A stretch of DNA of 64,000 nt. Source: Mangrovibacterium sp. Its GTDB lineage: Bacteria > Bacteroidota > Bacteroidia > Bacteroidales > Prolixibacteraceae. Under the pieces are notes generated by a model that was not told the DNA's origin, did not search any database, and saw only the letters and a program-made list of their open reading frames with translations. The position numbers and the translations under genes are program-made. The stretch is from assembly GCF_041596335.1 (NCBI RefSeq), contig NZ_JBFHIT010000009.1, positions 29,458 through 93,457 on the forward strand, in the 5' to 3' direction. Below are positions 1,463-64,000 of the stretch, piece after piece. Within the stretch, counting starts at the first letter, position 1. Every line of letters begins with the position of its first letter.

Positions 1463-2449
1463 ATGGCGAATTTATCAACCCGTTTTTTTGGATTGGATTT
1501 GAAAAGCCCAATTATTGCCGGAAGCAGCAGTTTAACGGCTAGTGTTGATCAGATTGAGAAAATAGCAAAAGCCGGGGCTGGCGCGGTGGTGTTGAAATCG
1601 CTGTTTGAAGAAGAAATTCAATTGCAGTTTGACGCGGAATTACTCGATCGGAAAGCCCTCGCACCAGATCCGGAATATTTGGACTATTTCGACTATGTAA
1701 TTAAGGATGAAAGCTTAACTCGATACATTCACTTAGTTGCAGATGCGAAAAAAGCGGTGCAAATCCCGGTTGTTGCCAGCATTAGTTGCACAACTTCTTC
1801 GGATTGGACACAGTTTGCCCGAAAAATTGAGGATGCCGGAGCTGATGCGCTGGAGCTAAACCTGTTCATCATTCCGTCGAACGAAAATCGGAGCCATTCG
1901 CTCAACGAGCAGTTCTATTTCGATACAGTTAAAAAGGTGCTCGAGGTCGTTTCTATTCCGGTTACTGTTAAAATAAGCCATTATTTTTCCAATTTAGCCA
2001 AAGTGGTCAGCGAGTTATCGCAAACCGGAATTGCCGGCATTACGTTATTCAACCGTTTTTACACCCCCGATATTGACATCGAACTGGAAGAAGTCGGGAA
2101 TGCTGAAATTCTGAGCAATGGAACTGAATACCTACTTCCTCTAAGGTGGACTGGCATTTTAAGTTCAAAATCTGCTTGTCCGTTGGCAGGCACAAGCGGA
2201 ATTATGAGCCCCGATACAGCTATAAAATTCTTATTAGCCGGAGCAAATGCTGTTCAGGTAGCTTCGGTTTTGTACCAGGAAGGTGCGGAAGTAATTGAAG
2301 AATTTAATCGTTCGATTTCGAAATGGATGGACGGTAAAGGATATCGTTCCATCGATGAATTTAAAGGGAAACTGTGCCTAAAGACCAAGCAAATTGATGC
2401 TTGGGAAAGAACTCAATTTATGAACTATTTTGGTGGTTTAAGCTTTTAA
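1463..2449 (+). CDS. Dihydroorotate dehydrogenase-like flavoprotein
   Basis: SPIIAGSS, AGAVVLKSLF, ADALELN, IPVTVKIS, ANAVQVAS: FMN TIM-barrel DHODH motifs. Confidence 0.85.
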   Translation: MANLSTRFFGLDLKSPIIAGSSSLTASVDQIEKIAKAGAGAVVLKSLFEEEIQLQFDAELLDRKALAPDPEYLDYFDYVIKDESLTRYIHLVADAKKAVQIPVVASISCTTSSDWTQFARKIEDAGADALELNLFIIPSNENRSHSLNEQFYFDTVKKVLEVVSIPVTVKISHYFSNLAKVVSELSQTGIAGITLFNRFYTPDIDIELEEVGNAEILSNGTEYLLPLRWTGILSSKSACPLAGTSGIMSPDTAIKFLLAGANAVQVASVLYQEGAEVIEEFNRSISKWMDGKGYRSIDEFKGKLCLKTKQIDAWERTQFMNYFGGLSF

Positions 2450-2525
2450 TACAAGTGTTTACTTGAATCGCTTTTGCTTAAATCGGGTTTTTTTTATTGA
2501 AAAATGTATACTCAACGCGTTAATC

Positions 2526-4895
2526 ATGTTTAGAAAATATTTCATTCTTCAGATCGTTTGTGTGTTTATCTTTCAGCTTGGATTGGCTCAGCCACCGGCA
2601 AATGATAAACAGTTTGTAAGCTACAAAGTGAAATCGGGCGAAACCATTTACTCGATTAGTCGCGCGTTTGGTATTGAAGGGGAAGTATTGCTCAATGAGA
2701 ACCCGCAACTGGTTTCCGGGCTGAAAGCGGGGCAAGAACTTCGTATTCCGATACCAGGCGGGGAGAACTTGCAACAAGAAGAGTTACCTTCATTTTTGAC
2801 TTATCGAGTTAGGCGGGGGAATACCTTGCACTATATTGCCAAACGATTTGGAATAACAGTTGAAGACATTGTGCACTATAATCCACAAGCTGAAAGCGGC
2901 ATAAAGAGGGGAGATCGACTTCGTATTCCGGATAAAGATGATTTAGCACGGATTAAAGAAAAAGCCGCAAAGGCAAAAGAGGTGGAGAGCTCAGGTTTAC
3001 AAATTCACATCGTGAAAACAGGAGAAACGCTTTATTCGATATCGAAGAAATACAATTGCTCGGTTGTCGATATTCTGAAGGTAAATCCTAATGCAGGACA
3101 GAATTTAGCCATTGGAATGAAACTTCAGATTCCTTCAACGCAGGTTGAAAGTGATTCACAAAACCAAACAAACGAATCGACTGATCAATCGGTTCGGTCA
3201 GATTCTTTTTTTATTCATTTGGTTGAAAGCGGTGAAACATTCTGGAGTCTGGAGCAAAAATATCACACAACAAAAGCCGAATTAATCGACTATAATCCGG
3301 TTTTGCGTGAAGGATTGAAAGTCGGATTTCGAATTCGGATTCCTAATAAAAATGTCCCATCGATAGAAGTTGTACCAACTGACGAAAGCGCTTTTACAAA
3401 GTATGAAGTTAAACGGGGAGAAACGGTTTATGGGTTGGCAAAACGTTTTAACCGGACAGTTGCGGAACTTAAACGGGTGAATCCGGTGTTGGATTACCGG
3501 GGATTAGTTGAAGGGGAAACTATTTTAATCCCTAACGAACTAAAAACAGATGTGGTTGCGCAAACACCGGGATCTGATTCGGATCGGGAAGTCGAAAGTT
3601 CGCTGGATTATCTGTCCTCTGTTGAATTTCGGTTGGAAGATGTACCGGAAAATTGCCGGCCTAATCCGCTTGCCCGGTTTGAGCATTACAATGTCGCCTT
3701 GTTGTTACCGCTTTATCTTTCGGCCAACGATACGATTAATCGTGAACGTGTATTGCCTGATCCGAATAGCCCGACGTACGAGGATGATTTGTTGTTTTTG
3801 GCCGATTCGTTCCGGGTGCGCGAAAACCGGATTGTTTATCCACACTCCGAAAGCTTTGTCCAGTTTTACGAAGGTGTACTTTTGGCAGTCGATAGCTTAA
3901 AACGTGCGGGAATGAATGTCAAACTGCATGTTTTCGATACCGACAAAAAGGCCTCCGCAATCCAATCTATTCTTTATCGTCCTGAGTTCCGGGATGTCGA
4001 TTTAATTATTGGACCGGTATTCCCCGAATTGCAGGGACCGGTTGCTGAGTTTGCCCGTCAACACGAAATCCCCATGGTGTCGCCACTTTCTTCGTCAGGA
4101 AATTTGGAGCAGACTAATCCGTATTATTTTAAAATAAGCCCGAGTAAAGAGTATCTAATTCGTCAAACAGCATCGTACATTGCTGATGAGTATTTTGATA
4201 AGAATTTAATTGTTTTGCCGATGGGGGAATACAAACACTTGCCTGAAGCAGAACTGGTGAATTTATCCCGTGAGAAATTTTTCATATCACCCTATCGAAA
4301 ACAAACAGATCAGATACTTTTTCATGAATATAATTTAGCACAAGAAGGAGCACTGGGCTTGTCCCGAATTTTATTGAAAGACCAGGAAAATGTGTTCATT
4401 ATTCCAACTGAAACCGAAGCACAACTGAGCGTGGCGGTGACTAATTTGAATGCTATTGCAGAGAATTATCCGGTAACCTTGGTTGGTTTATCCAATTTTC
4501 AACGGTATAAAAGTATTCAAACGGAATACTACCATCATACGAACCTGAATCTGTTAAGTCCTTATCATATCGATTACAAGGCGCCATTAGTTAATCAGTT
4601 TTTGTATCAATTCCGTAAGAATTTTTGTGCCGAACCGAATCAGTTTAGTTTTCAGGGATATGACATTGCCTATTACTTTATGTCGGCTATGTTTAGCTAT
4701 GGCAAAGATTTCATAAGGTGCTTGCCCTATCACCAAGTGGAACTTACTCAAGCTGAATTTCATTTTGAGAAAGTCAATCGGGATGGCGGATACATAAATC
4801 AAGGGCTATTTATTTTGGAGTATGAGCCTGATTACAGCATCCGACTGAAAGGAATAAGCGGAAAACCGATGTATCACCTAAGTGAAACAAAGTAG
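2526..4895 (+). CDS. Secreted protein with 5 LysM domains and a C-terminal periplasmic-binding-protein type 1 domain
   Basis: Five Y/HxVxxGET...NP...G..L.IP repeats; NVALLLPL, FYEGVLLAVDSL, DLIIGP; signal peptide from MFRKY (start chosen at 2526, the track starts at 2463). Confidence 0.85.
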   Translation: MFRKYFILQIVCVFIFQLGLAQPPANDKQFVSYKVKSGETIYSISRAFGIEGEVLLNENPQLVSGLKAGQELRIPIPGGENLQQEELPSFLTYRVRRGNTLHYIAKRFGITVEDIVHYNPQAESGIKRGDRLRIPDKDDLARIKEKAAKAKEVESSGLQIHIVKTGETLYSISKKYNCSVVDILKVNPNAGQNLAIGMKLQIPSTQVESDSQNQTNESTDQSVRSDSFFIHLVESGETFWSLEQKYHTTKAELIDYNPVLREGLKVGFRIRIPNKNVPSIEVVPTDESAFTKYEVKRGETVYGLAKRFNRTVAELKRVNPVLDYRGLVEGETILIPNELKTDVVAQTPGSDSDREVESSLDYLSSVEFRLEDVPENCRPNPLARFEHYNVALLLPLYLSANDTINRERVLPDPNSPTYEDDLLFLADSFRVRENRIVYPHSESFVQFYEGVLLAVDSLKRAGMNVKLHVFDTDKKASAIQSILYRPEFRDVDLIIGPVFPELQGPVAEFARQHEIPMVSPLSSSGNLEQTNPYYFKISPSKEYLIRQTASYIADEYFDKNLIVLPMGEYKHLPEAELVNLSREKFFISPYRKQTDQILFHEYNLAQEGALGLSRILLKDQENVFIIPTETEAQLSVAVTNLNAIAENYPVTLVGLSNFQRYKSIQTEYYHHTNLNLLSPYHIDYKAPLVNQFLYQFRKNFCAEPNQFSFQGYDIAYYFMSAMFSYGKDFIRCLPYHQVELTQAEFHFEKVNRDGGYINQGLFILEYEPDYSIRLKGISGKPMYHLSETK

Positions 4896-4898
4896 AAC

Positions 4899-4935
4899 AA
4901 GAACGGGGAAATGTAGCAATCATTTCCCCGTTCTT
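4899..4935. terminator. Bidirectional intrinsic terminator between convergent genes
   Basis: 15-bp stem AAGAACGGGGAAATG / CATTTCCCCGTTCTT. Confidence 0.85.
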
Positions 4936-4955
4936 ATTTTGTTTGAAGCTGAAGG

Positions 4956-6176
4956 TCATTCTAATTCTGCAAATGTTTTCTTAATTCGTTTAATCGCATC
5001 TAGCATTTCATCCTGAGTGATAATCAGTGGAGGAGTAAACCGAATAATATTCTCGTGTGTTGGTTTCGCGAGAATTCCATTTTCTTTCATTGCCAGACAA
5101 ACGTCCCATGCGGTTTTGCCTTTTGTTGGTTTAATCACAATCGCATTCAACAAGCCTTTCCCACGAACCTGCTGAATTAACTCTGATTTTACTGCGCTCA
5201 TCTCGGAACGGAACAATTCACCTATTTTGGTCGCATTATCAGCCAGTTTTTCCTCTTGTAAAACCTCGAGTGCCCTAATCGCTACTTTGGCTGCAATCGG
5301 GTTTCCTCCATAGGTTGAACCATGCTCGCCGGGTTTTATTGTCAGCATTATTTTGTCATCGGCCAATACACATGAAACCGGGTAAAGCCCTCCTGAAATT
5401 GCCTTGCCTAGTATTAAAATGTCAGGGCGTACATTCTCATGGTCGCAGGCAAGCATTTTCCCGGTACGGGCAAGACCTGTTTGTACTTCGTCGGCAACAA
5501 ACAGGGCGTTGTGTTTTTTGCATAAGTCCGCCGCTTTTTTCAAATAGCCGTCTTCGGGCAAATAAACTCCTGCTTCAGCCTGTATAGGTTCTACTAAAAA
5601 TCCAGCGACATCAGGTTGTTTTAGCGCGTTTTCCAGTGCTTCCAGGTCGTTGTAAGGTGTGTTAATAAATCCTGGAGTAAAGGGGCCATAATCCGAATAG
5701 GCATCAGGATCGGATGACATGGATACGATTGTGATGGTACGGCCATGAAAATTGCCATTGCAAACCACTATTTTCGCCTGATTTTGGGGGATTCCTTTTA
5801 CTTTATAGGCCCATTTTCGGGTTAGTTTTAGAGCTGTTTCTACTGCCTCGGCTCCTGAGTTCATGGGAAGCATTTTGTCGTAACCAAATAACCTGGTCGT
5901 ATATTCTTCCCATTCGCCCAAAACATTATTGTAGTATGCTCTGGAGGTGAGTGCCAGTTTCTGAGCTTGCTCAATCAGCGCATTCACGATTTTTGGATGG
6001 CAATGACCTTGGTTAACAGCCGAGTAGGCTGCAAGGAAATCGTAATATTTTTTTCCTTCTACATCCCAAACAAAAACACCTTGTCCACGCTCGAGCACAA
6101 CTGGTAGCGGATGATAGTTGTGCGCGCCAAACCGGTCTTCCCGGTTCATGTAATAAGTTGAATCTTTTGTTTGCAT
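4956..6176 (-). CDS. rocD: Ornithine--oxo-acid aminotransferase
   Basis: [55 protein letters not shown] lysine; start at MQTK chosen. Confidence 0.92.
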
Positions 6177-6327
6177 AAAAATAGCTTTACCAAATTGTTT
6201 ATGCAGATTTAACAATTATTCGGCTGATAACAAAACAGATGGAACTGTTCGAAAATATGGACAAGCATGAATATTGTAATTGTTTTCGACCCTGAAATTC
6301 AGTATATAAACGAGATCAGAGAGTTGG

Positions 6328-8382
6328 CTATTTCCAAAAACGGATGACCAGCATTTCGGTCAGGGCAAAAAGCAATGCGAGCAACAGCGCAAATTTCCAT
6401 AATTCAATCACATTCGCATTGCTACTGTTTTGCTCAAGCCAACTGCCGTTGTCCCGCTTAAAAATCTGACAATTCACTCCCGAGCTCTTAGCAATGTTTT
6501 CTAATTCGTCGGAAGAGTAAAAACTCAAATCAGATTCCAATCGGCTGTAGTTGAAAGCTAAAGGAATTTCGACTCCTTCAGCCGATGACAGGTTGTAAAA
6601 GCCCGCTTCGTGGATCATGTCACCGGTTGAAAAGCGATAGTCGGTGTAACGATCGTTTAAATTGGGCACCTGAACCGGATTATCCTCTCCGGGTCTTTTT
6701 AGAAACAAGTTTTCAGATTGGTTGATTTGTTGGCCTAATTTGAGACTTATAATCTGATTGTTTTGCACCGGGTATTCGATTGTTTGCGGGAAATAGCTGT
6801 GAAGCGCAATATTGTAGATGACCGGAACAAAAAGAGCATGGCGGTAGAAATCGGACGCGTTAACTGATAGTGGAAAGGTAAATTGATACAGCCTTCCTTG
6901 TTCAAACGGAAACTCGGATAATGCCGCGCTGCCATTGTTGTTGGTCATAATGGTCGTTCCAACAGTTTGTACTTTTTGTTTCAGCGGAAAATAGATCTGG
7001 ATTGAGGGGAGTTTAACCCGATCGTAATCGCGGGTGAAGACATCGTGAAAAAGATGATGCTGCAGATTCAGACGATCTATTTTTAAGGGCGATGTGACAT
7101 TGTTGTCGAACTGTAAGGCGTTTAGTTGGCTGAACAACTCATTGTATGAGGTTTGATCGATTGTTTCGCCTGGAAAAACAGCGACACTTCCTCCGTCCTT
7201 AATAAAACTGACGAGTGCCGTTTGTAGTCCTTTGGAAAGAGTAGGCAAGTTGACCAAAAAAATGCATTGGTACTCTGCAAAGCGACTTATTTGTAGTCGG
7301 TTGTCTGACATTTTTTGCAGCCTGACTTGCTCGTCCTGATAAAACAATTTTTCAATCCATTGATTGGCCGGATCGTTTTCGGGACTGATTAAAAGAGTCG
7401 AAACATGCGGATCAACGCGATAACTGAAATAGTAGGAATTGTCGTAGCTTATCGGATAATCATCCAATTCCAGTTTGCAGTAGTGGTTCCCCTGTTTTCG
7501 ATTTTGGTAGCTTATTTCGGCTTCAATCGTTTCGCCAGCTTTCAAATTAATTGTTTGCATCGATCTCAACGAGTCATTCAACAAAAAGCGCAACGGAATA
7601 TTATTGAACGATTTGGTGGAACGATTCGTAATTCTGGCTTTCAATACTTCGAGCTGCCCCTGTAATCGGCCTGGAGAATGAAGCCAGCACGTGTCAATAA
7701 CCAAATTGTTGACCTCTGGTTGTGCCATTGGTATCAAGTAAATCTGGGTCTTATCATCAACTTCAACCTGATTTAAATCGGTCACGTTTCGTTGGAAGTC
7801 TGACAGCAAATAAATGTTTTTGTCGAGCTTTGGGTGATTAGATTCAAGCTGTTTAGTTAGAATTGCGACAACCTTGCTCAACGGCATGTTGGCAGCAGAG
7901 CTTTTAATTTTTCCAATTTCGCTGATGAGTTCCTCTTTTGTGAGGCTGAGCCGTTGTTGCGATGTCGCATCATTGGTTAAAAGCATAAAATGTGTGCCGG
8001 GCAGAAAGCTATTAGCCAGTTCAATTGATTTTATTTTAGCCTCTTCCAATAGCGTTCCGTTCCCCGAAATTCCATTCATCGAAAACGAATTGTCGATGTA
8101 GATGCCGATTGAATTTTCGGAATTAGGTGCACTGGAGCTCCCCAGTGGAATATAAGGCTGAGCAAATGCCAGTACAATAAAGGCGACAATAAGAATACGG
8201 CAAGCCAAAATCACCAGTTGTTTCAGATTCTGCTTCTTTTTCGATTCGTCGTAAAGTATTTTTAAAAAGTCAACCTGACTGAAATAAACCGTCTTATAGC
8301 GTTTGAATTGCAGAATGTGAATCAGTATTGGTAGGCACACCAGACTAAGCGCAAAAAGAAAATTAGGGTCGGCAAATTTCAT
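6328..8382 (-). CDS. BatA N-terminal double-transmembrane domain protein (vWA-associated)
   Basis: MKFADPNFLFAL...PILIH...FSQVDFL N-terminus; YIDNSFSM vWA-like motif; C-terminal TM segment ending IRFWK. Confidence 0.8.
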   Translation of the reverse strand: MKFADPNFLFALSLVCLPILIHILQFKRYKTVYFSQVDFLKILYDESKKKQNLKQLVILACRILIVAFIVLAFAQPYIPLGSSSAPNSENSIGIYIDNSFSMNGISGNGTLLEEAKIKSIELANSFLPGTHFMLLTNDATSQQRLSLTKEELISEIGKIKSSAANMPLSKVVAILTKQLESNHPKLDKNIYLLSDFQRNVTDLNQVEVDDKTQIYLIPMAQPEVNNLVIDTCWLHSPGRLQGQLEVLKARITNRSTKSFNNIPLRFLLNDSLRSMQTINLKAGETIEAEISYQNRKQGNHYCKLELDDYPISYDNSYYFSYRVDPHVSTLLISPENDPANQWIEKLFYQDEQVRLQKMSDNRLQISRFAEYQCIFLVNLPTLSKGLQTALVSFIKDGGSVAVFPGETIDQTSYNELFSQLNALQFDNNVTSPLKIDRLNLQHHLFHDVFTRDYDRVKLPSIQIYFPLKQKVQTVGTTIMTNNNGSAALSEFPFEQGRLYQFTFPLSVNASDFYRHALFVPVIYNIALHSYFPQTIEYPVQNNQIISLKLGQQINQSENLFLKRPGEDNPVQVPNLNDRYTDYRFSTGDMIHEAGFYNLSSAEGVEIPLAFNYSRLESDLSFYSSDELENIAKSSGVNCQIFKRDNGSWLEQNSSNANVIELWKFALLLALLFALTEMLVIRFWK

Positions 8383-60821: not shown

Positions 60822-60935
60822 AATAAAAACTCCCACCGAAGCGGGAGTATAGGTTTTAACACCTTCGGCATATAGCCTTATTGTGATAAGATGTAAAATG
60901 ATTCAATTTTATGTCTGCTAAAGTAAAGAATTGAT
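60822..60935 (-). ncRNA. Probable tracrRNA, divergent from cas9
   Basis: Minus strand ...CATCTTATCACAATAAGGCTATATGCCGAAGGTGTTAAAACCTATACTCCCGC-TTCG-GTGGGAGTTTTT: anti-repeat end, GGC/GCC nexus, AGGT/ACCT hairpin, C(UUCG)G terminator; 5' end approximate. Confidence 0.72.
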
Positions 60936-60972: not shown

Positions 60973-63900
60973 ATGGCTAAAATACTGGGACTTGACTTAG
61001 GCACCAACAGCATCGGCTGGGCAGTGGTGGACGCTACAATGAAAGATGGACAGGTTGAACGTTACTTATCGATTTCTGATTCAGGAGTTCGGATTTTTCC
61101 CGAAGGCGTTGAACCAAACACAATCGGGCAAGGCGATAAAGAACAGTCGAAAAATGCAACAAGGAGAGAACATCGACAAATGCGTCGTCAGTTTTATCGC
61201 AAGAAGTTGAGAAAAGTGAAATTGCTTGAGGCTCTGGTTAAACTGAAAATGTGTCCCTTGTCTGTCGATGGCCTTAAGGGATGGAGTAAATGGGAAAAGT
61301 CTCAGAAAACCAATGGGCAACAATTTCCATCGGAGCCGGATTTTGTTGAATGGCTTAAACTTAATCCATACGAGTTACGTGCCAAAGCGTTAGATGAACA
61401 GCTTAGTATGCAGGAACTAGGCCGCATTTTTTATCATTTCATACAACGCCGAGGATTTTTAAGTAGTCGAAAGGGGAGCGATGATGGAGCGATATACAAA
61501 GGCAAGGAAAATATGTCGGGGATTGATAGTACCCGTGTGCTGATGGACGGACAAACACTTGGAAAAGCGCTACATGACATATCATATAAGCCTGGTGAAA
61601 AATACCACAACAAAATAGACAAAGATGGGAAAGCCTTGAGGTTGCGTGCCCGATATACCCAACGGGACATGTATATTGACGAATTTCAGAGAATTTGGGA
61701 AAAACAAGCCGCTCGATTAGACCTAGACCGGAGAGTAATGCCTGTGCGGAAAATCCGATTTCTGAAAGGTAGTTTGGAAAGTCCCCGCAACCAGCATAAG
61801 CTGGAAAAGTACAAGGAAAAATATGGCGAGAATAACCTCTTTATCGAGGACAATAAAGTGACAAGTATTGCTGAAATTCCTTTGAAAAAATATTTTGCCG
61901 GTGAAATTGAAGAGTTGGATGGACAATTGAAGTTTAAAAGTAACGAGAGTTTGTTGTTTTGGCAACGGCCACTTCGATCTCAGAAGAACTTGCTGGACAA
62001 CTGTCGTTTCGAGAACAACCGGCCTGTGCTAATGACAAACGGACAATACCGGATGAAAAATGGGGAATTGGTGCTCCGTAGCAAAAAGCCTTGCCCTTTG
62101 TCTCACCCCGAGTTTGAACTGTTCAGGGCCTATCAGTTCATTAATAACATCCGGTACGGAAAAGGACAGAAGCTGACCTTGGAACAGCGACAACAAGTAT
62201 TGGAACTGATGAACGGCAGAGATGGTAATTTCAATTTTGAAGAAATACCGAAGGCATTGAAGTTGACTTATGAGAAGTTCAACTACGACAATGACCAGAA
62301 AATAGCAGGGAACACTACAATAAAAAAACTAACTCCGCTTTTTCCCGCTAGCATTTGGGAACGCAACTATGAGGTTATTTGGCATTGCTTCTATTTTTAT
62401 GATGATAATGAGCGATTGTTTGCAAAACTGAAAAAGGATTTTCAATTAAAAGTTGACGACCCTGATAAAATTTCGAAAATCCGATTGAAAGACGGTTATT
62501 CGAATGTTTCGTTGAAAGCAATCCGCAATATCAATCCGTTTTTGGAAAAAGGCTATTTGTACGCTGACTCTGTTGTATTAGGGGGCGTAAAAAACGCTTT
62601 TGGATATCGTTGGGGAAATTTTGAAATGTACCAGGATGAAATTGAGCGGGCTGTATGTCAGATATTGCGGGAAGACAATAAAGAAGGTGAAGGCATCGAA
62701 AAAATAAAAGAATGGTTAGCCTCTCCGGTGAATAGTTACGGTTTCTCGAAAAAAGATCCGGCGTTTTCGCAATTATATCATCACAGTCAGGAAATTTTGA
62801 AGAAAGAACGCCTGGCTTTAGTGCCTGAGCTGGAAAATTTACGGAACCCGATTGTTCAACAAGCACTACAGGAGATGCGCCGTTTAGTGAATTCGTTGTT
62901 GAAAAAATATCGGGAAAAAGAGCCTGACTTTTCGTTTGACCGGATTCATGTGGAAATGGGGCGCGACCTAAAAAACAACAAAACTAAGCGCCAAGATTTA
63001 ACGCGTAAGATCAGGGATAATGAGAAAAAGAATGATGAGGCCCGGAAGCGACTGGAAGAATTTGGATTGCGACCGACTCGGGATAACTTATTGCGCTATT
63101 TACTGTACGATGAAATTCAAATGCATGTGTCTGGGCCCGTTCTCTGCCCTTATACCGGCAAGGTGATTAGCATGGCCGACCTAATTGGCGGAGGCAATAC
63201 CGTACAAATTGAACACATGGTTCCTTACAGCGTATCGCTCGACGATAGTTTCGGAAACAAAACTCTTTGTGAAGCCAACTTTAATCGGATGAAAGGCGAG
63301 AAAACCCCTTATGAGTTTTACCTGACTAACCCGGATTATAAACTTTGGGGCATCAATAAATATCCAGATTTGGAGGATGGCTGGAAAGAAATTTCGGAAC
63401 GGGCTTTCAAGGTGTTACCCTACCCAAAAGCTAAACGTTTTACTGTGAAGAAGAAGATTGAAAAAACTGATTTTATTGAACGCCAGCTAAACGACACACG
63501 ATACATTAGTCGCAAAGCGGTTGAATCATTATCGGCCATCTGTAGCGATGTGCGCATGTTGCCAGGACAGGTAACCGCCGAGTTGCGTCACCTCTGGGGA
63601 ATCAACAATATTCTGAACCCTGTTCTGGGAATTGAAAACTTTAAAGCCGAAGTGAGGGGTGACGAACGGTTGACCTATTATGTGGTTACTGATGAAGATA
63701 ACCGGGTATTGGCAATGCAGCGAAAATCAAACGACCGTCCGGAAACTGGCGCTGAACAACTGGTGCTGACCGGAGCTGTAAATAAGGGAGCTTTTTCGTC
63801 GAAATATTTACGTATGAAAATAGATGCACCTAATTTGAAAGATGGTGAATACTGGGCTGTGGTGAATGTTTCGGCACCACATTCATTTCAATCGGTATTT

Positions 63901-64000
63901 GCTGAAAAACCCGATGGGGATGAGCAGCGGCTTGTATTTAAAGGTCGGGTTGAAAAACAGTTTTTTACAAACGATACGGTTGGCAAACGGATTAAGGCAG
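60973..64000 (+). CDS. cas9: Type II-C CRISPR nuclease Cas9, 3'-truncated by the window (1009 aa visible)
   Basis: Own translation, no stop: MAKILGLDLGTNSIGWAVV (RuvC-I), Arg-rich bridge helix, LRNPIV, IHVEMGRD (RuvC-II), CPYTG...IEHMVP...NKTLC...N..KG (HNH), RQLNDTRYI, TAELRHLWG. Confidence 0.96.
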   Translation, partial: MAKILGLDLGTNSIGWAVVDATMKDGQVERYLSISDSGVRIFPEGVEPNTIGQGDKEQSKNATRREHRQMRRQFYRKKLRKVKLLEALVKLKMCPLSVDGLKGWSKWEKSQKTNGQQFPSEPDFVEWLKLNPYELRAKALDEQLSMQELGRIFYHFIQRRGFLSSRKGSDDGAIYKGKENMSGIDSTRVLMDGQTLGKALHDISYKPGEKYHNKIDKDGKALRLRARYTQRDMYIDEFQRIWEKQAARLDLDRRVMPVRKIRFLKGSLESPRNQHKLEKYKEKYGENNLFIEDNKVTSIAEIPLKKYFAGEIEELDGQLKFKSNESLLFWQRPLRSQKNLLDNCRFENNRPVLMTNGQYRMKNGELVLRSKKPCPLSHPEFELFRAYQFINNIRYGKGQKLTLEQRQQVLELMNGRDGNFNFEEIPKALKLTYEKFNYDNDQKIAGNTTIKKLTPLFPASIWERNYEVIWHCFYFYDDNERLFAKLKKDFQLKVDDPDKISKIRLKDGYSNVSLKAIRNINPFLEKGYLYADSVVLGGVKNAFGYRWGNFEMYQDEIERAVCQILREDNKEGEGIEKIKEWLASPVNSYGFSKKDPAFSQLYHHSQEILKKERLALVPELENLRNPIVQQALQEMRRLVNSLLKKYREKEPDFSFDRIHVEMGRDLKNNKTKRQDLTRKIRDNEKKNDEARKRLEEFGLRPTRDNLLRYLLYDEIQMHVSGPVLCPYTGKVISMADLIGGGNTVQIEHMVPYSVSLDDSFGNKTLCEANFNRMKGEKTPYEFYLTNPDYKLWGINKYPDLEDGWKEISERAFKVLPYPKAKRFTVKKKIEKTDFIERQLNDTRYISRKAVESLSAICSDVRMLPGQVTAELRHLWGINNILNPVLGIENFKAEVRGDERLTYYVVTDEDNRVLAMQRKSNDRPETGAEQLVLTGAVNKGAFSSKYLRMKIDAPNLKDGEYWAVVNVSAPHSFQSVFAEKPDGDEQRLVFKGRVEKQFFTNDTVGKRIKA

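Follow-up and report, generated by a model that had tools for sequence, protein, structure and literature searches.

A four-unit, beta-rich insertion in the RuvC-III region of a clade of large Bacteroidota type II-C Cas9 proteins

The Cas9 protein encoded at the end of a 64,000-nucleotide stretch of the genome of Mangrovibacterium sp. (Bacteroidota, family Prolixibacteraceae; hereafter, the window) carries a large insertion in the third segment of its RuvC nuclease domain (RuvC-III), made up of a probable stalk of two hairpins that carries, in tandem, four homologous five-stranded beta units of ~57 amino acids each. The window represents contig C9:29458-93457 (NZ_JBFHIT010000009.1, RefSeq assembly GCF_041596335.1) from a source genome of 4.98 Mb in 106 contigs, and takes in the N-terminal 1,009 of the 1,528 codons of cas9 (window 60973..64000, + strand), identified from a listing of open reading frames (ORFs) and from matches to TIGR01865 and Pfam. 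The ORF is still open at the window edge, where the genome sequence adds 519 codons to give a protein of 1,528 amino acids, ending at contig position 95016 (the whole gene occupies positions 2431-7017 of locus L001). An earlier reading of the window, made from its letters alone (the sequence-only reading), had proposed a large, internally repeated, beta-rich RuvC-III insertion in a type II-C Cas9, at least 128 amino acids long and continuing past the window edge. This proposal is borne out by alignment with GeoCas9, by repeat statistics (z-scores up to 12.3) and by an all-beta AlphaFold2 model, with a full length of ~295 amino acids; the landmarks it had placed (residues 868-881, 882, 922, 979 and 957-961, with a repeat spacing of 57 amino acids) are all correct. 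To this, our analysis adds the count of four units, the fixed length of the insert, its single origin and its confinement to Cas9.

Relative to GeoCas9, NmeCas9 and a sister clade of Cas9 proteins of ~1,125 amino acids, the insert spans residues ~882-1176 and lies between LRHLWGINNIL and DPKKNRDDHRHHAIDA. GeoCas9 aligns to residues 610-878 of the query and then to residues 1178-1237, with zero gap on the GeoCas9 side (residue 710). Because these flanks are contiguous in GeoCas9 and the Pfam RuvC_III match is split likewise, we regard the segment as a true insertion; it aligns with neither RuvC nor WED sequence of the ordinary kind. Just ahead of the insert, the final ordinary strand of RuvC-III, TAELRHLWGINNIL (residues 868-881; window 63574..63615, + strand), aligns with GeoCas9 to residue 710 and with CbCas9 to about residue 986. 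The first residue of the insert, 882, is encoded from window position 63616, and 128 amino acids of the insert (882-1009) fall within the window. The anchor motif [LIVMF][RK]xxWG is present in nearly all of 120 listed homologues and both flanking anchors are present in 118, in which anchor-to-anchor spacing is mostly 313-320 amino acids (range 311-352), down to 30% identity.

After the insert, the RuvC fold resumes at GEIKYDPKKNRDDHRHHAIDA, with the invariant residues K1179 and R1181. The base of the insert lies within 6-8 residues of K1179/R1181 and ~10 residues from the catalytic histidines H1186/H1187. K1179 and R1181 themselves sit 6-8 residues before the catalytic histidine pair, like K974 and R976 of SpCas9 before H982/H983, and on this analogy K1179, R1181 and the catalytic histidine would correspond roughly to K974, R976 and H983 of SpCas9. 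The SpCas9 hairpin that bears the non-target-strand residues K974 and R976 plays a role in cleaving the non-target strand and in the position of the nick (PMC5680257; PMC12571883), and in the R976A and H982A variants the position of the non-target-strand nick is relaxed and degradation of the ends promoted (PMC12571883). The insert lies in the counterpart of this hairpin, which in SpCas9 binds the non-target strand, and given that role its base should sit at the element that positions the non-target strand. That the insert is fixed and of single origin, with intact flanking motifs, would argue against its being an intein or a mobile element.

The insert opens with a linker and a ‘pre’ beta-hairpin (residues 882-921, strands 900-906 and 911-917; window 63616..63735, + strand), delimited by strands E19-25 and E30-36 in the DSSP assignment of the AlphaFold2 model. 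Unit A (residues 922-978; window 63736..63906, + strand) comprises about five strands and contains the motif DGEYW (residues 957-961); a hidden Markov model (HMM) of the unit matches it over residues 922-982 with an E-value of 7.5e-19. Unit B (residues 979-1038, 60 amino acids, the first 31 of them in the window; window 63907..64000, + strand) was recognised by Smith-Waterman alignment, HHalign and the unit HMM. The sequence past the window edge holds units C (1039-1094) and D (1095-1153) and the strand that leads back to DPKKNRDDHRHHAIDA (L001 5545-5979), and also a ‘post’ hairpin (residues 1158-1177), which with the pre hairpin (900-917) brackets the four-unit array. The two hairpins probably form the stalk of the array. 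The sequence-only reading had recognised two units, and these are the two that the window holds; the full insert has four.

Units A and B begin at RPETGAEQLVLTGAVNKGAF (residue 922, window position 63736) and KPDGDEQRLVFKGRVEKQFF (residue 979, window position 63907), respectively. In Smith-Waterman comparisons against 300 shuffled sequences, z-scores reached 12.3 for units A and B and 10.8 for units A and C, with no shuffle attaining the observed scores, while the fourth unit gave nothing significant in these pairwise comparisons. Profile-profile comparison using HHalign, built on 118 homologues, links all six pairs of units at 96-99% probability (E 1e-9 to 5e-18), and on this ground we treat all four ~57-residue units as homologous. 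They share the pattern P-x(4-6)-h-h-h-x-G-x-h-x-x-G-x-F ... [DN]-G-x-Y-[WY]-h-x-h-x-h. HHalign comparison of the unit profiles with the rest of the protein (residues 1-881 and 1177-1528) gave zero similarity, and the unit therefore bears no sign of having been copied from another Cas9 domain.

AlphaFold2 predicted the insert, from a 38-sequence alignment, as an all-beta structure with a predicted local distance difference test score (pLDDT) of 93.5 and a predicted template-modelling score (pTM) of 0.78, with about five strands per unit according to DSSP. The query insert matched no Pfam family, and no TOBE family even at E-values up to 10. A Pfam scan of 38 inserts returned scattered weak matches, the most recurrent of which was to the OB-fold family CcmE (4 of 38 members, best E 1.8e-4). 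When a two-unit model of A and B (pLDDT 83) was searched with Foldseek, the sole coherent matches were to the C-terminal regulatory TOBE (transport-associated OB) domains of four ABC-transporter ATPases: MsmX (6YIR, probability 0.94), CysA (1Z47, 0.54), ModC (3D31, 0.72) and PotA (8ZX1, 0.23), with template-modelling (TM) scores of 0.39-0.45 and E-values of at least 0.09. These domains are small tandem five-stranded beta-barrels of ~60 amino acids, but they superpose with a root-mean-square deviation of 6-7 Å, at E-values of 0.09 and above, and show no sequence-profile match to the units. The models tentatively suggest that the units are small OB/TOBE-like barrels, a likeness that we treat as a lead rather than as membership.

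Searches with the insert region recovered more than 120 protein clusters, all of them Cas9 proteins of ~1,500-1,640 amino acids or fragments thereof. Named sources include Prolixibacteraceae, Gaoshiqia, Carboxylicivirga, Draconibacterium, Mariniphaga, Flavobacterium orientale, F. marginilacus, Kaistella, Halpernia, Gelidibacter, Bizionia and a ‘Chlorobi’ metagenome-assembled genome (MAG). A filter-free phmmer search of the whole insert against 1.84 billion representative proteins returned only Cas9s, and cas9 was the sole match to the unit HMM across the organism’s own genome. Two giant Ig/fn3-repeat proteins (P0148 and P0149) gave weak phmmer matches and were rejected, since the unit HMM does not match them.

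Among 186 proteins of more than 1,400 amino acids, 181 have exactly four units by the unit HMM and three have five. Because extra half or whole units occur, duplication of the unit appears to be still happening, with four units strongly preferred. Distant Cas9s of ~1,460-1,570 amino acids (P0140-P0145) also carry the insert, with four or five units detected in P0140 and P0142-P0144 and one in P0145. The extra half unit was seen in P0114 (1,562 amino acids), as a duplicated KYWAKIKL / KYWTKIRL hairpin.

When one genome per species was scanned, 79 cas9 loci came up, among which the size of the insert at this site is bimodal: 292-312 amino acids in proteins of ~1,530 amino acids, as against 3-5 amino acids in a large group of ~1,125-residue Cas9s from Flavobacteriia and Cytophagia. 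At the same position, members of the CbCas9-like clade show 0-9 amino acids in the multiple alignment. A tree built with the insert masked placed the insert-bearing Cas9s as a monophyletic group (support 0.997) nested among the short ~1,125-residue forms. By these sequence comparisons, the insert has a single origin, in the common ancestor of one clade of Bacteroidota Cas9s, after which it was held at four units. A second, smaller clade-specific insertion, of 49 amino acids, lies in the REC lobe (residues 254-302; window 61732..61878, + strand) and is absent from 32 sister-clade Cas9s of ~1,125 amino acids and present throughout the insert-bearing clade except in the basal L013. As L013 has the RuvC insert without the REC insertion, the RuvC insert evidently came first.

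We hold the anatomical and evolutionary statements above, the likeness to OB/TOBE folds and the analogy with SpCas9 apart, with high confidence, and much more firmly than anything that we say below on function. The claim of the sequence-only reading that this is an accessory domain with no assigned function stands in the sense that the insert is a stand-alone domain, with no Pfam family and no fold match. Databases label the insert-bearing proteins simply as Cas9, and we found no description of the domain in the literature on CbCas9/PcrIIC1, on Odoribacter laneus, on Bacteroidetes RuvC-III insertions or on the OB-fold, nor in the supplements to the Gasiunas catalogue; the domain is undescribed in the literature found, in Pfam families and among structures. 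Differences in size among Cas9s are usually attributed to the REC and PI lobes; in this protein a single domain, confidently predicted to fold and with no Pfam family or solved homologue, makes up about three quarters of the additional length (~295 of ~400 amino acids).

In composition, the insert (mean net charge -6, isoelectric point 5.8) differs from the remaining protein (+51, isoelectric point 9.5), and the charge is graded along the units (A +1.9, B +3.6, C -1.9, D -5.8). Because the insert is acidic while the rest of the protein is basic, bulk nucleic-acid binding by it appears disfavoured, though units A and B are mildly basic. Conserved columns are almost all glycine, proline or aromatic, and the insert has no conserved polar (catalytic-like) residue apart from one aspartate, D1116; nothing in this pattern suggests catalysis. 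With a mean identity of 40%, compared to 55% overall, the insert is the least conserved and fastest-evolving region of the protein. Nonsynonymous divergence (dN) in the insert is far below synonymous divergence (dS), which indicates purifying selection. As dS is saturated in every available pair, the selection results are confined to this statement and to the ratio of dN in the insert to dN in the rest of the gene, which is 0.9-1.9.

We tentatively favour, with somewhat less than even confidence, the reading that the insert works as a module without catalytic activity, one that would gate, hold or shield the groove for the non-target strand. Because the insert leaves and re-enters RuvC beside K1179, R1181 and the catalytic histidines, the four-barrel array should flank this groove and may control access to it without taking part in catalysis. 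Units A and B, being mildly basic, could hold or guide the displaced strand, and the outer pair, C and D, acidic and quick to evolve, could serve as a steric shield or contact surface.

Several observations weigh against this reading. The orientation of the insert relative to the groove follows only from its position in the sequence, and a net acidic insert speaks against strong binding of the DNA backbone. A conserved basic or aromatic surface patch on the insert was not demonstrated. Whole-insert Foldseek searches of the PDB and BFVD returned no match (best E 0.09 and 0.05, with TM below 0.13), and the likeness of the units to OB/TOBE barrels falls under the usual thresholds (E 0.09, TM < 0.5). 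The sister clade evidently works without the insert, and we know of no biochemically tested member of the insert-bearing clade.

A bolder proposal, which we consider quite unlikely, is that the array acts as a built-in module for handling or regulating the non-target strand, one that would grip single-stranded DNA or sense a partner or ligand and so gate RuvC, set the position of the nick or drive trimming of the ends. If so, this Cas9 would be the first in nature with an accessory domain devoted to control of the RuvC site, and would point to a module that could be transplanted into editors to tune where they nick.

Among the rivals to a module that guards the non-target-strand groove, the one that survives best, although we rate it rather unlikely, is that the insert is a protein docking platform, whether for Cas1-Cas2 in the acquisition of spacers linked to the protospacer-adjacent motif (PAM), for a host factor or for oligomerisation of Cas9. 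Type II-C systems lack Csn2, which gives the idea of Cas1-Cas2 recruitment its context. An acidic, fast-evolving surface on a rigid scaffold would suit such a role, as would the long arrays (at least 55 repeats here) and the weak fold matches to TOBE-type domains, which in ABC ATPases are regulatory modules that bind proteins or ligands. CbCas9, another large Bacteroidota Cas9, does bind a partner, PcrIIC1, but through a C-terminal helix rather than through RuvC (PMC13153721). Against a docking role, no conserved surface residues were seen in the insert, and the only conserved neighbours of cas9 among 19 insert-bearing loci are cas1 and cas2 (found in 15 loci; the others have too little flanking sequence), which are equally present beside insert-less relatives. 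No PIN/PcrIIC1-like gene occurs in the neighbourhoods of these 19 loci. With only cas1 and cas2 conserved beside insert-bearing cas9 genes, the data do not support recruitment of a partner by way of a dedicated accessory gene.

It is also unlikely, in our view, that the insert is a tolerated passenger, in which a beta unit entered a surface hairpin, duplicated to four copies and was kept through its integration into RuvC while doing nothing specific for immunity. The low conservation of the insert, the near-restriction of its conserved positions to structural glycine, proline and aromatic residues, the insert-less sister clade and the lack of associated genes would all be expected of a passenger. 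However, not one of more than 180 sequences, which span ~30% identity, has lost or shortened the insert, and its copy number is fixed at four despite the ongoing duplications seen in the three five-unit proteins and in the half unit of P0114. Purifying selection (dN far below dS) and the location of the insert in a functionally sensitive hairpin count against it too.

We think it improbable that the insert is an anti-anti-CRISPR shield or decoy, guarding the RuvC/PAM-proximal groove from phage inhibitors with a surface caught in an arms race. Quick change of the surface on a constant scaffold, with dN up to ~1.9 times that in the rest of the gene, would fit such a role, as would the adjoining active site and an acidic surface that could mimic or repel DNA-mimic inhibitors. 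On the other side, the saturated dS gives no handle on positive selection, and known AcrIIC proteins mostly target the HNH, REC, bridge helix or PI domains, not RuvC. A ligand-sensing allosteric regulator, in which TOBE-like barrels would tune RuvC activity on binding of a small anion or metabolite, is hardly credible: the regulatory, ligand-binding domains of the ATPases ModC, CysA, MsmX and PotA are weakly similar in structure, but the insert has no conserved polar pocket (the sole invariant polar residue being D1116) and, as noted, no Pfam TOBE match at any E-value up to 10.

A role for the domain at the RuvC site is directly testable by domain swap, because natural controls exist: the sister clade with its loop of 3-5 amino acids, one possible stalk-only sequence and more than 180 four-unit sequences. 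The insert may matter for the engineering of nick position, strand release or inhibitor resistance and, if inert, it still marks a well-defined permissive insertion site in RuvC-III.

The nearest relatives of the insert-bearing Cas9 are type II-C proteins of ~1,125 amino acids, such as those of Flavobacterium facile (L035) and Cellulophaga baltica (L027), with 39-40% full-length identity. They share its domain order, catalytic motifs and LRxxWG...(E/D)DHRHHAxDA anchors, but have 3-5 rather than ~295 amino acids at the insertion site and also lack the 49-residue REC insertion. The possible stalk-only sequence is a Cas9 of 1,200 amino acids from a Gracilimonas sp. MAG (L044 8001-11579), which falls in the sister group and has a 59-residue insertion at the identical RuvC-III site. 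This insertion comprises a DGEY-hairpin and a return hairpin resembling the stalk (YLAAIDAEDNVAGL compared to YYVVTDEDNRVLAM), but it lacks repeat units (zero matches to the unit HMM) and its likeness to the stalk in HHalign is weak (12%). It could represent an evolutionary intermediate with the stalk alone or, given the weak similarity, could be of independent origin.

Among solved structures, the closest in sequence is that of CbCas9 from Chryseobacterium (E 1e-44; PDB 8IYQ and related entries). CbCas9, too, is a large type II-C protein from Bacteroidota that carries additions specific to its clade, but its extra length lies elsewhere, and CbCas9-like sequences (L066-L079) form a clade separate from the insert-bearing Cas9s. 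The compact type II-C enzymes GeoCas9 and Nme1Cas9 (PDB 8UZA, 9AR4, 6JDV) share the nuclease core and have no insertion. Among Bacteroidota Cas9s of similar size, only Fp2Cas9 of F. psychrophilum (1,548 amino acids) has been characterised (PMC12609912). Its HNH numbering (E868, compared to E747 here) and its repeat, GUUGUGAAUUGCUUUCAAAAUUGUA, both differ, and given these differences it probably belongs outside the insert-bearing clade. None of the fetched loci contains an array of the Fp2Cas9 repeat, with one isolated approximate match in L043.

The Mangrovibacterium locus looks like an ordinary, apparently active type II-C system with a complete and catalytically intact Cas9. The 1,528-residue protein scores 522.5 bits against TIGR01865 (cas_Csn1, the NCBIfam Cas9 equivalog; cut-off 100) and matches Pfam HNH_4 and, in two parts, RuvC_III. 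Its RuvC and HNH catalytic residues are intact (D8, E661, H1186/H1187, D1190, E747/H748 and N771, with the HHAIDA motif at residues 1186-1191), and the same residues are kept in 65-67 of 69 aligned relatives. Downstream (3') of cas9 come, in order, a 208-residue ORF resembling a REP-associated tyrosine transposase (RayT), cas1 and cas2 (both identified by Pfam matches) and a CRISPR array of ~55 (at least 55) copies of the 36-nucleotide repeat GTTGTGGTTTGATGTAAAATGACCAAGACTTTCAAC, beyond the window. A tracrRNA anti-repeat lies upstream of cas9 and divergent from it (window 60881..60901, - strand; the + strand reads TTGTGATAAGATGTAAAATGA), and agrees with the start of the CRISPR repeat at 18 of 21 bases. 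The locus thus has the cas1, cas2, array and tracrRNA of a type II-C system, with no csn2 or cas4.

The array, with spacers of 30 nucleotides, occupies L001 9545-13205 and runs off the end of the contig, which makes its length a lower bound. The sequence-only reading had suggested a look for accessory genes beside cas1 and cas2; none is conserved there in the 19 insert-bearing loci, although the RayT-like ORF recurs, with a homologue in the same position between cas9 and cas1 in 4 of the 19 insert-bearing loci, including the present one. This ORF (L001 7413-8039; contig C9 95412-96038) lies just beyond the window, contains the HUH-like motif GNHFHVLVR and gives a weak match to the REP-associated tyrosine transposase family (NF047646, E 4.9e-13, below cut-off). 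Palindromes of 33 nucleotides (AGACCTTCAAGGTTTCGAA..CTTGAAGGTCT) occur at L001 7625, 8031 and 8978, flanking cas1.

Four short MAG contigs labelled as Neomarinimicrobiota (L004), Acidaminococcaceae (L006), Thiohalospira (L014) and Eubacteriales (L021) bear a Bacteroidota-type, insert-bearing cas9, and for these non-Bacteroidota labels mis-binning is more likely than lateral transfer. The Cas9 of Polaribacter sp. HL-MS24 (L045) is partly degenerate. Two Bacteroidota MAGs encode insert-less, sister-clade homologues of ~1,126 amino acids (L062 8001-11336 and L068 8001-11342), in which all eight RuvC and HNH catalytic positions are replaced (HVEPIVYK for DEHHDEHN); within 8 kb, L068 lacks a tandem repeat array, and neither cas1 nor cas2 is obvious, as judged by ORF sizes only. 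Both look like naturally nuclease-dead, possibly repurposed, Cas9s.

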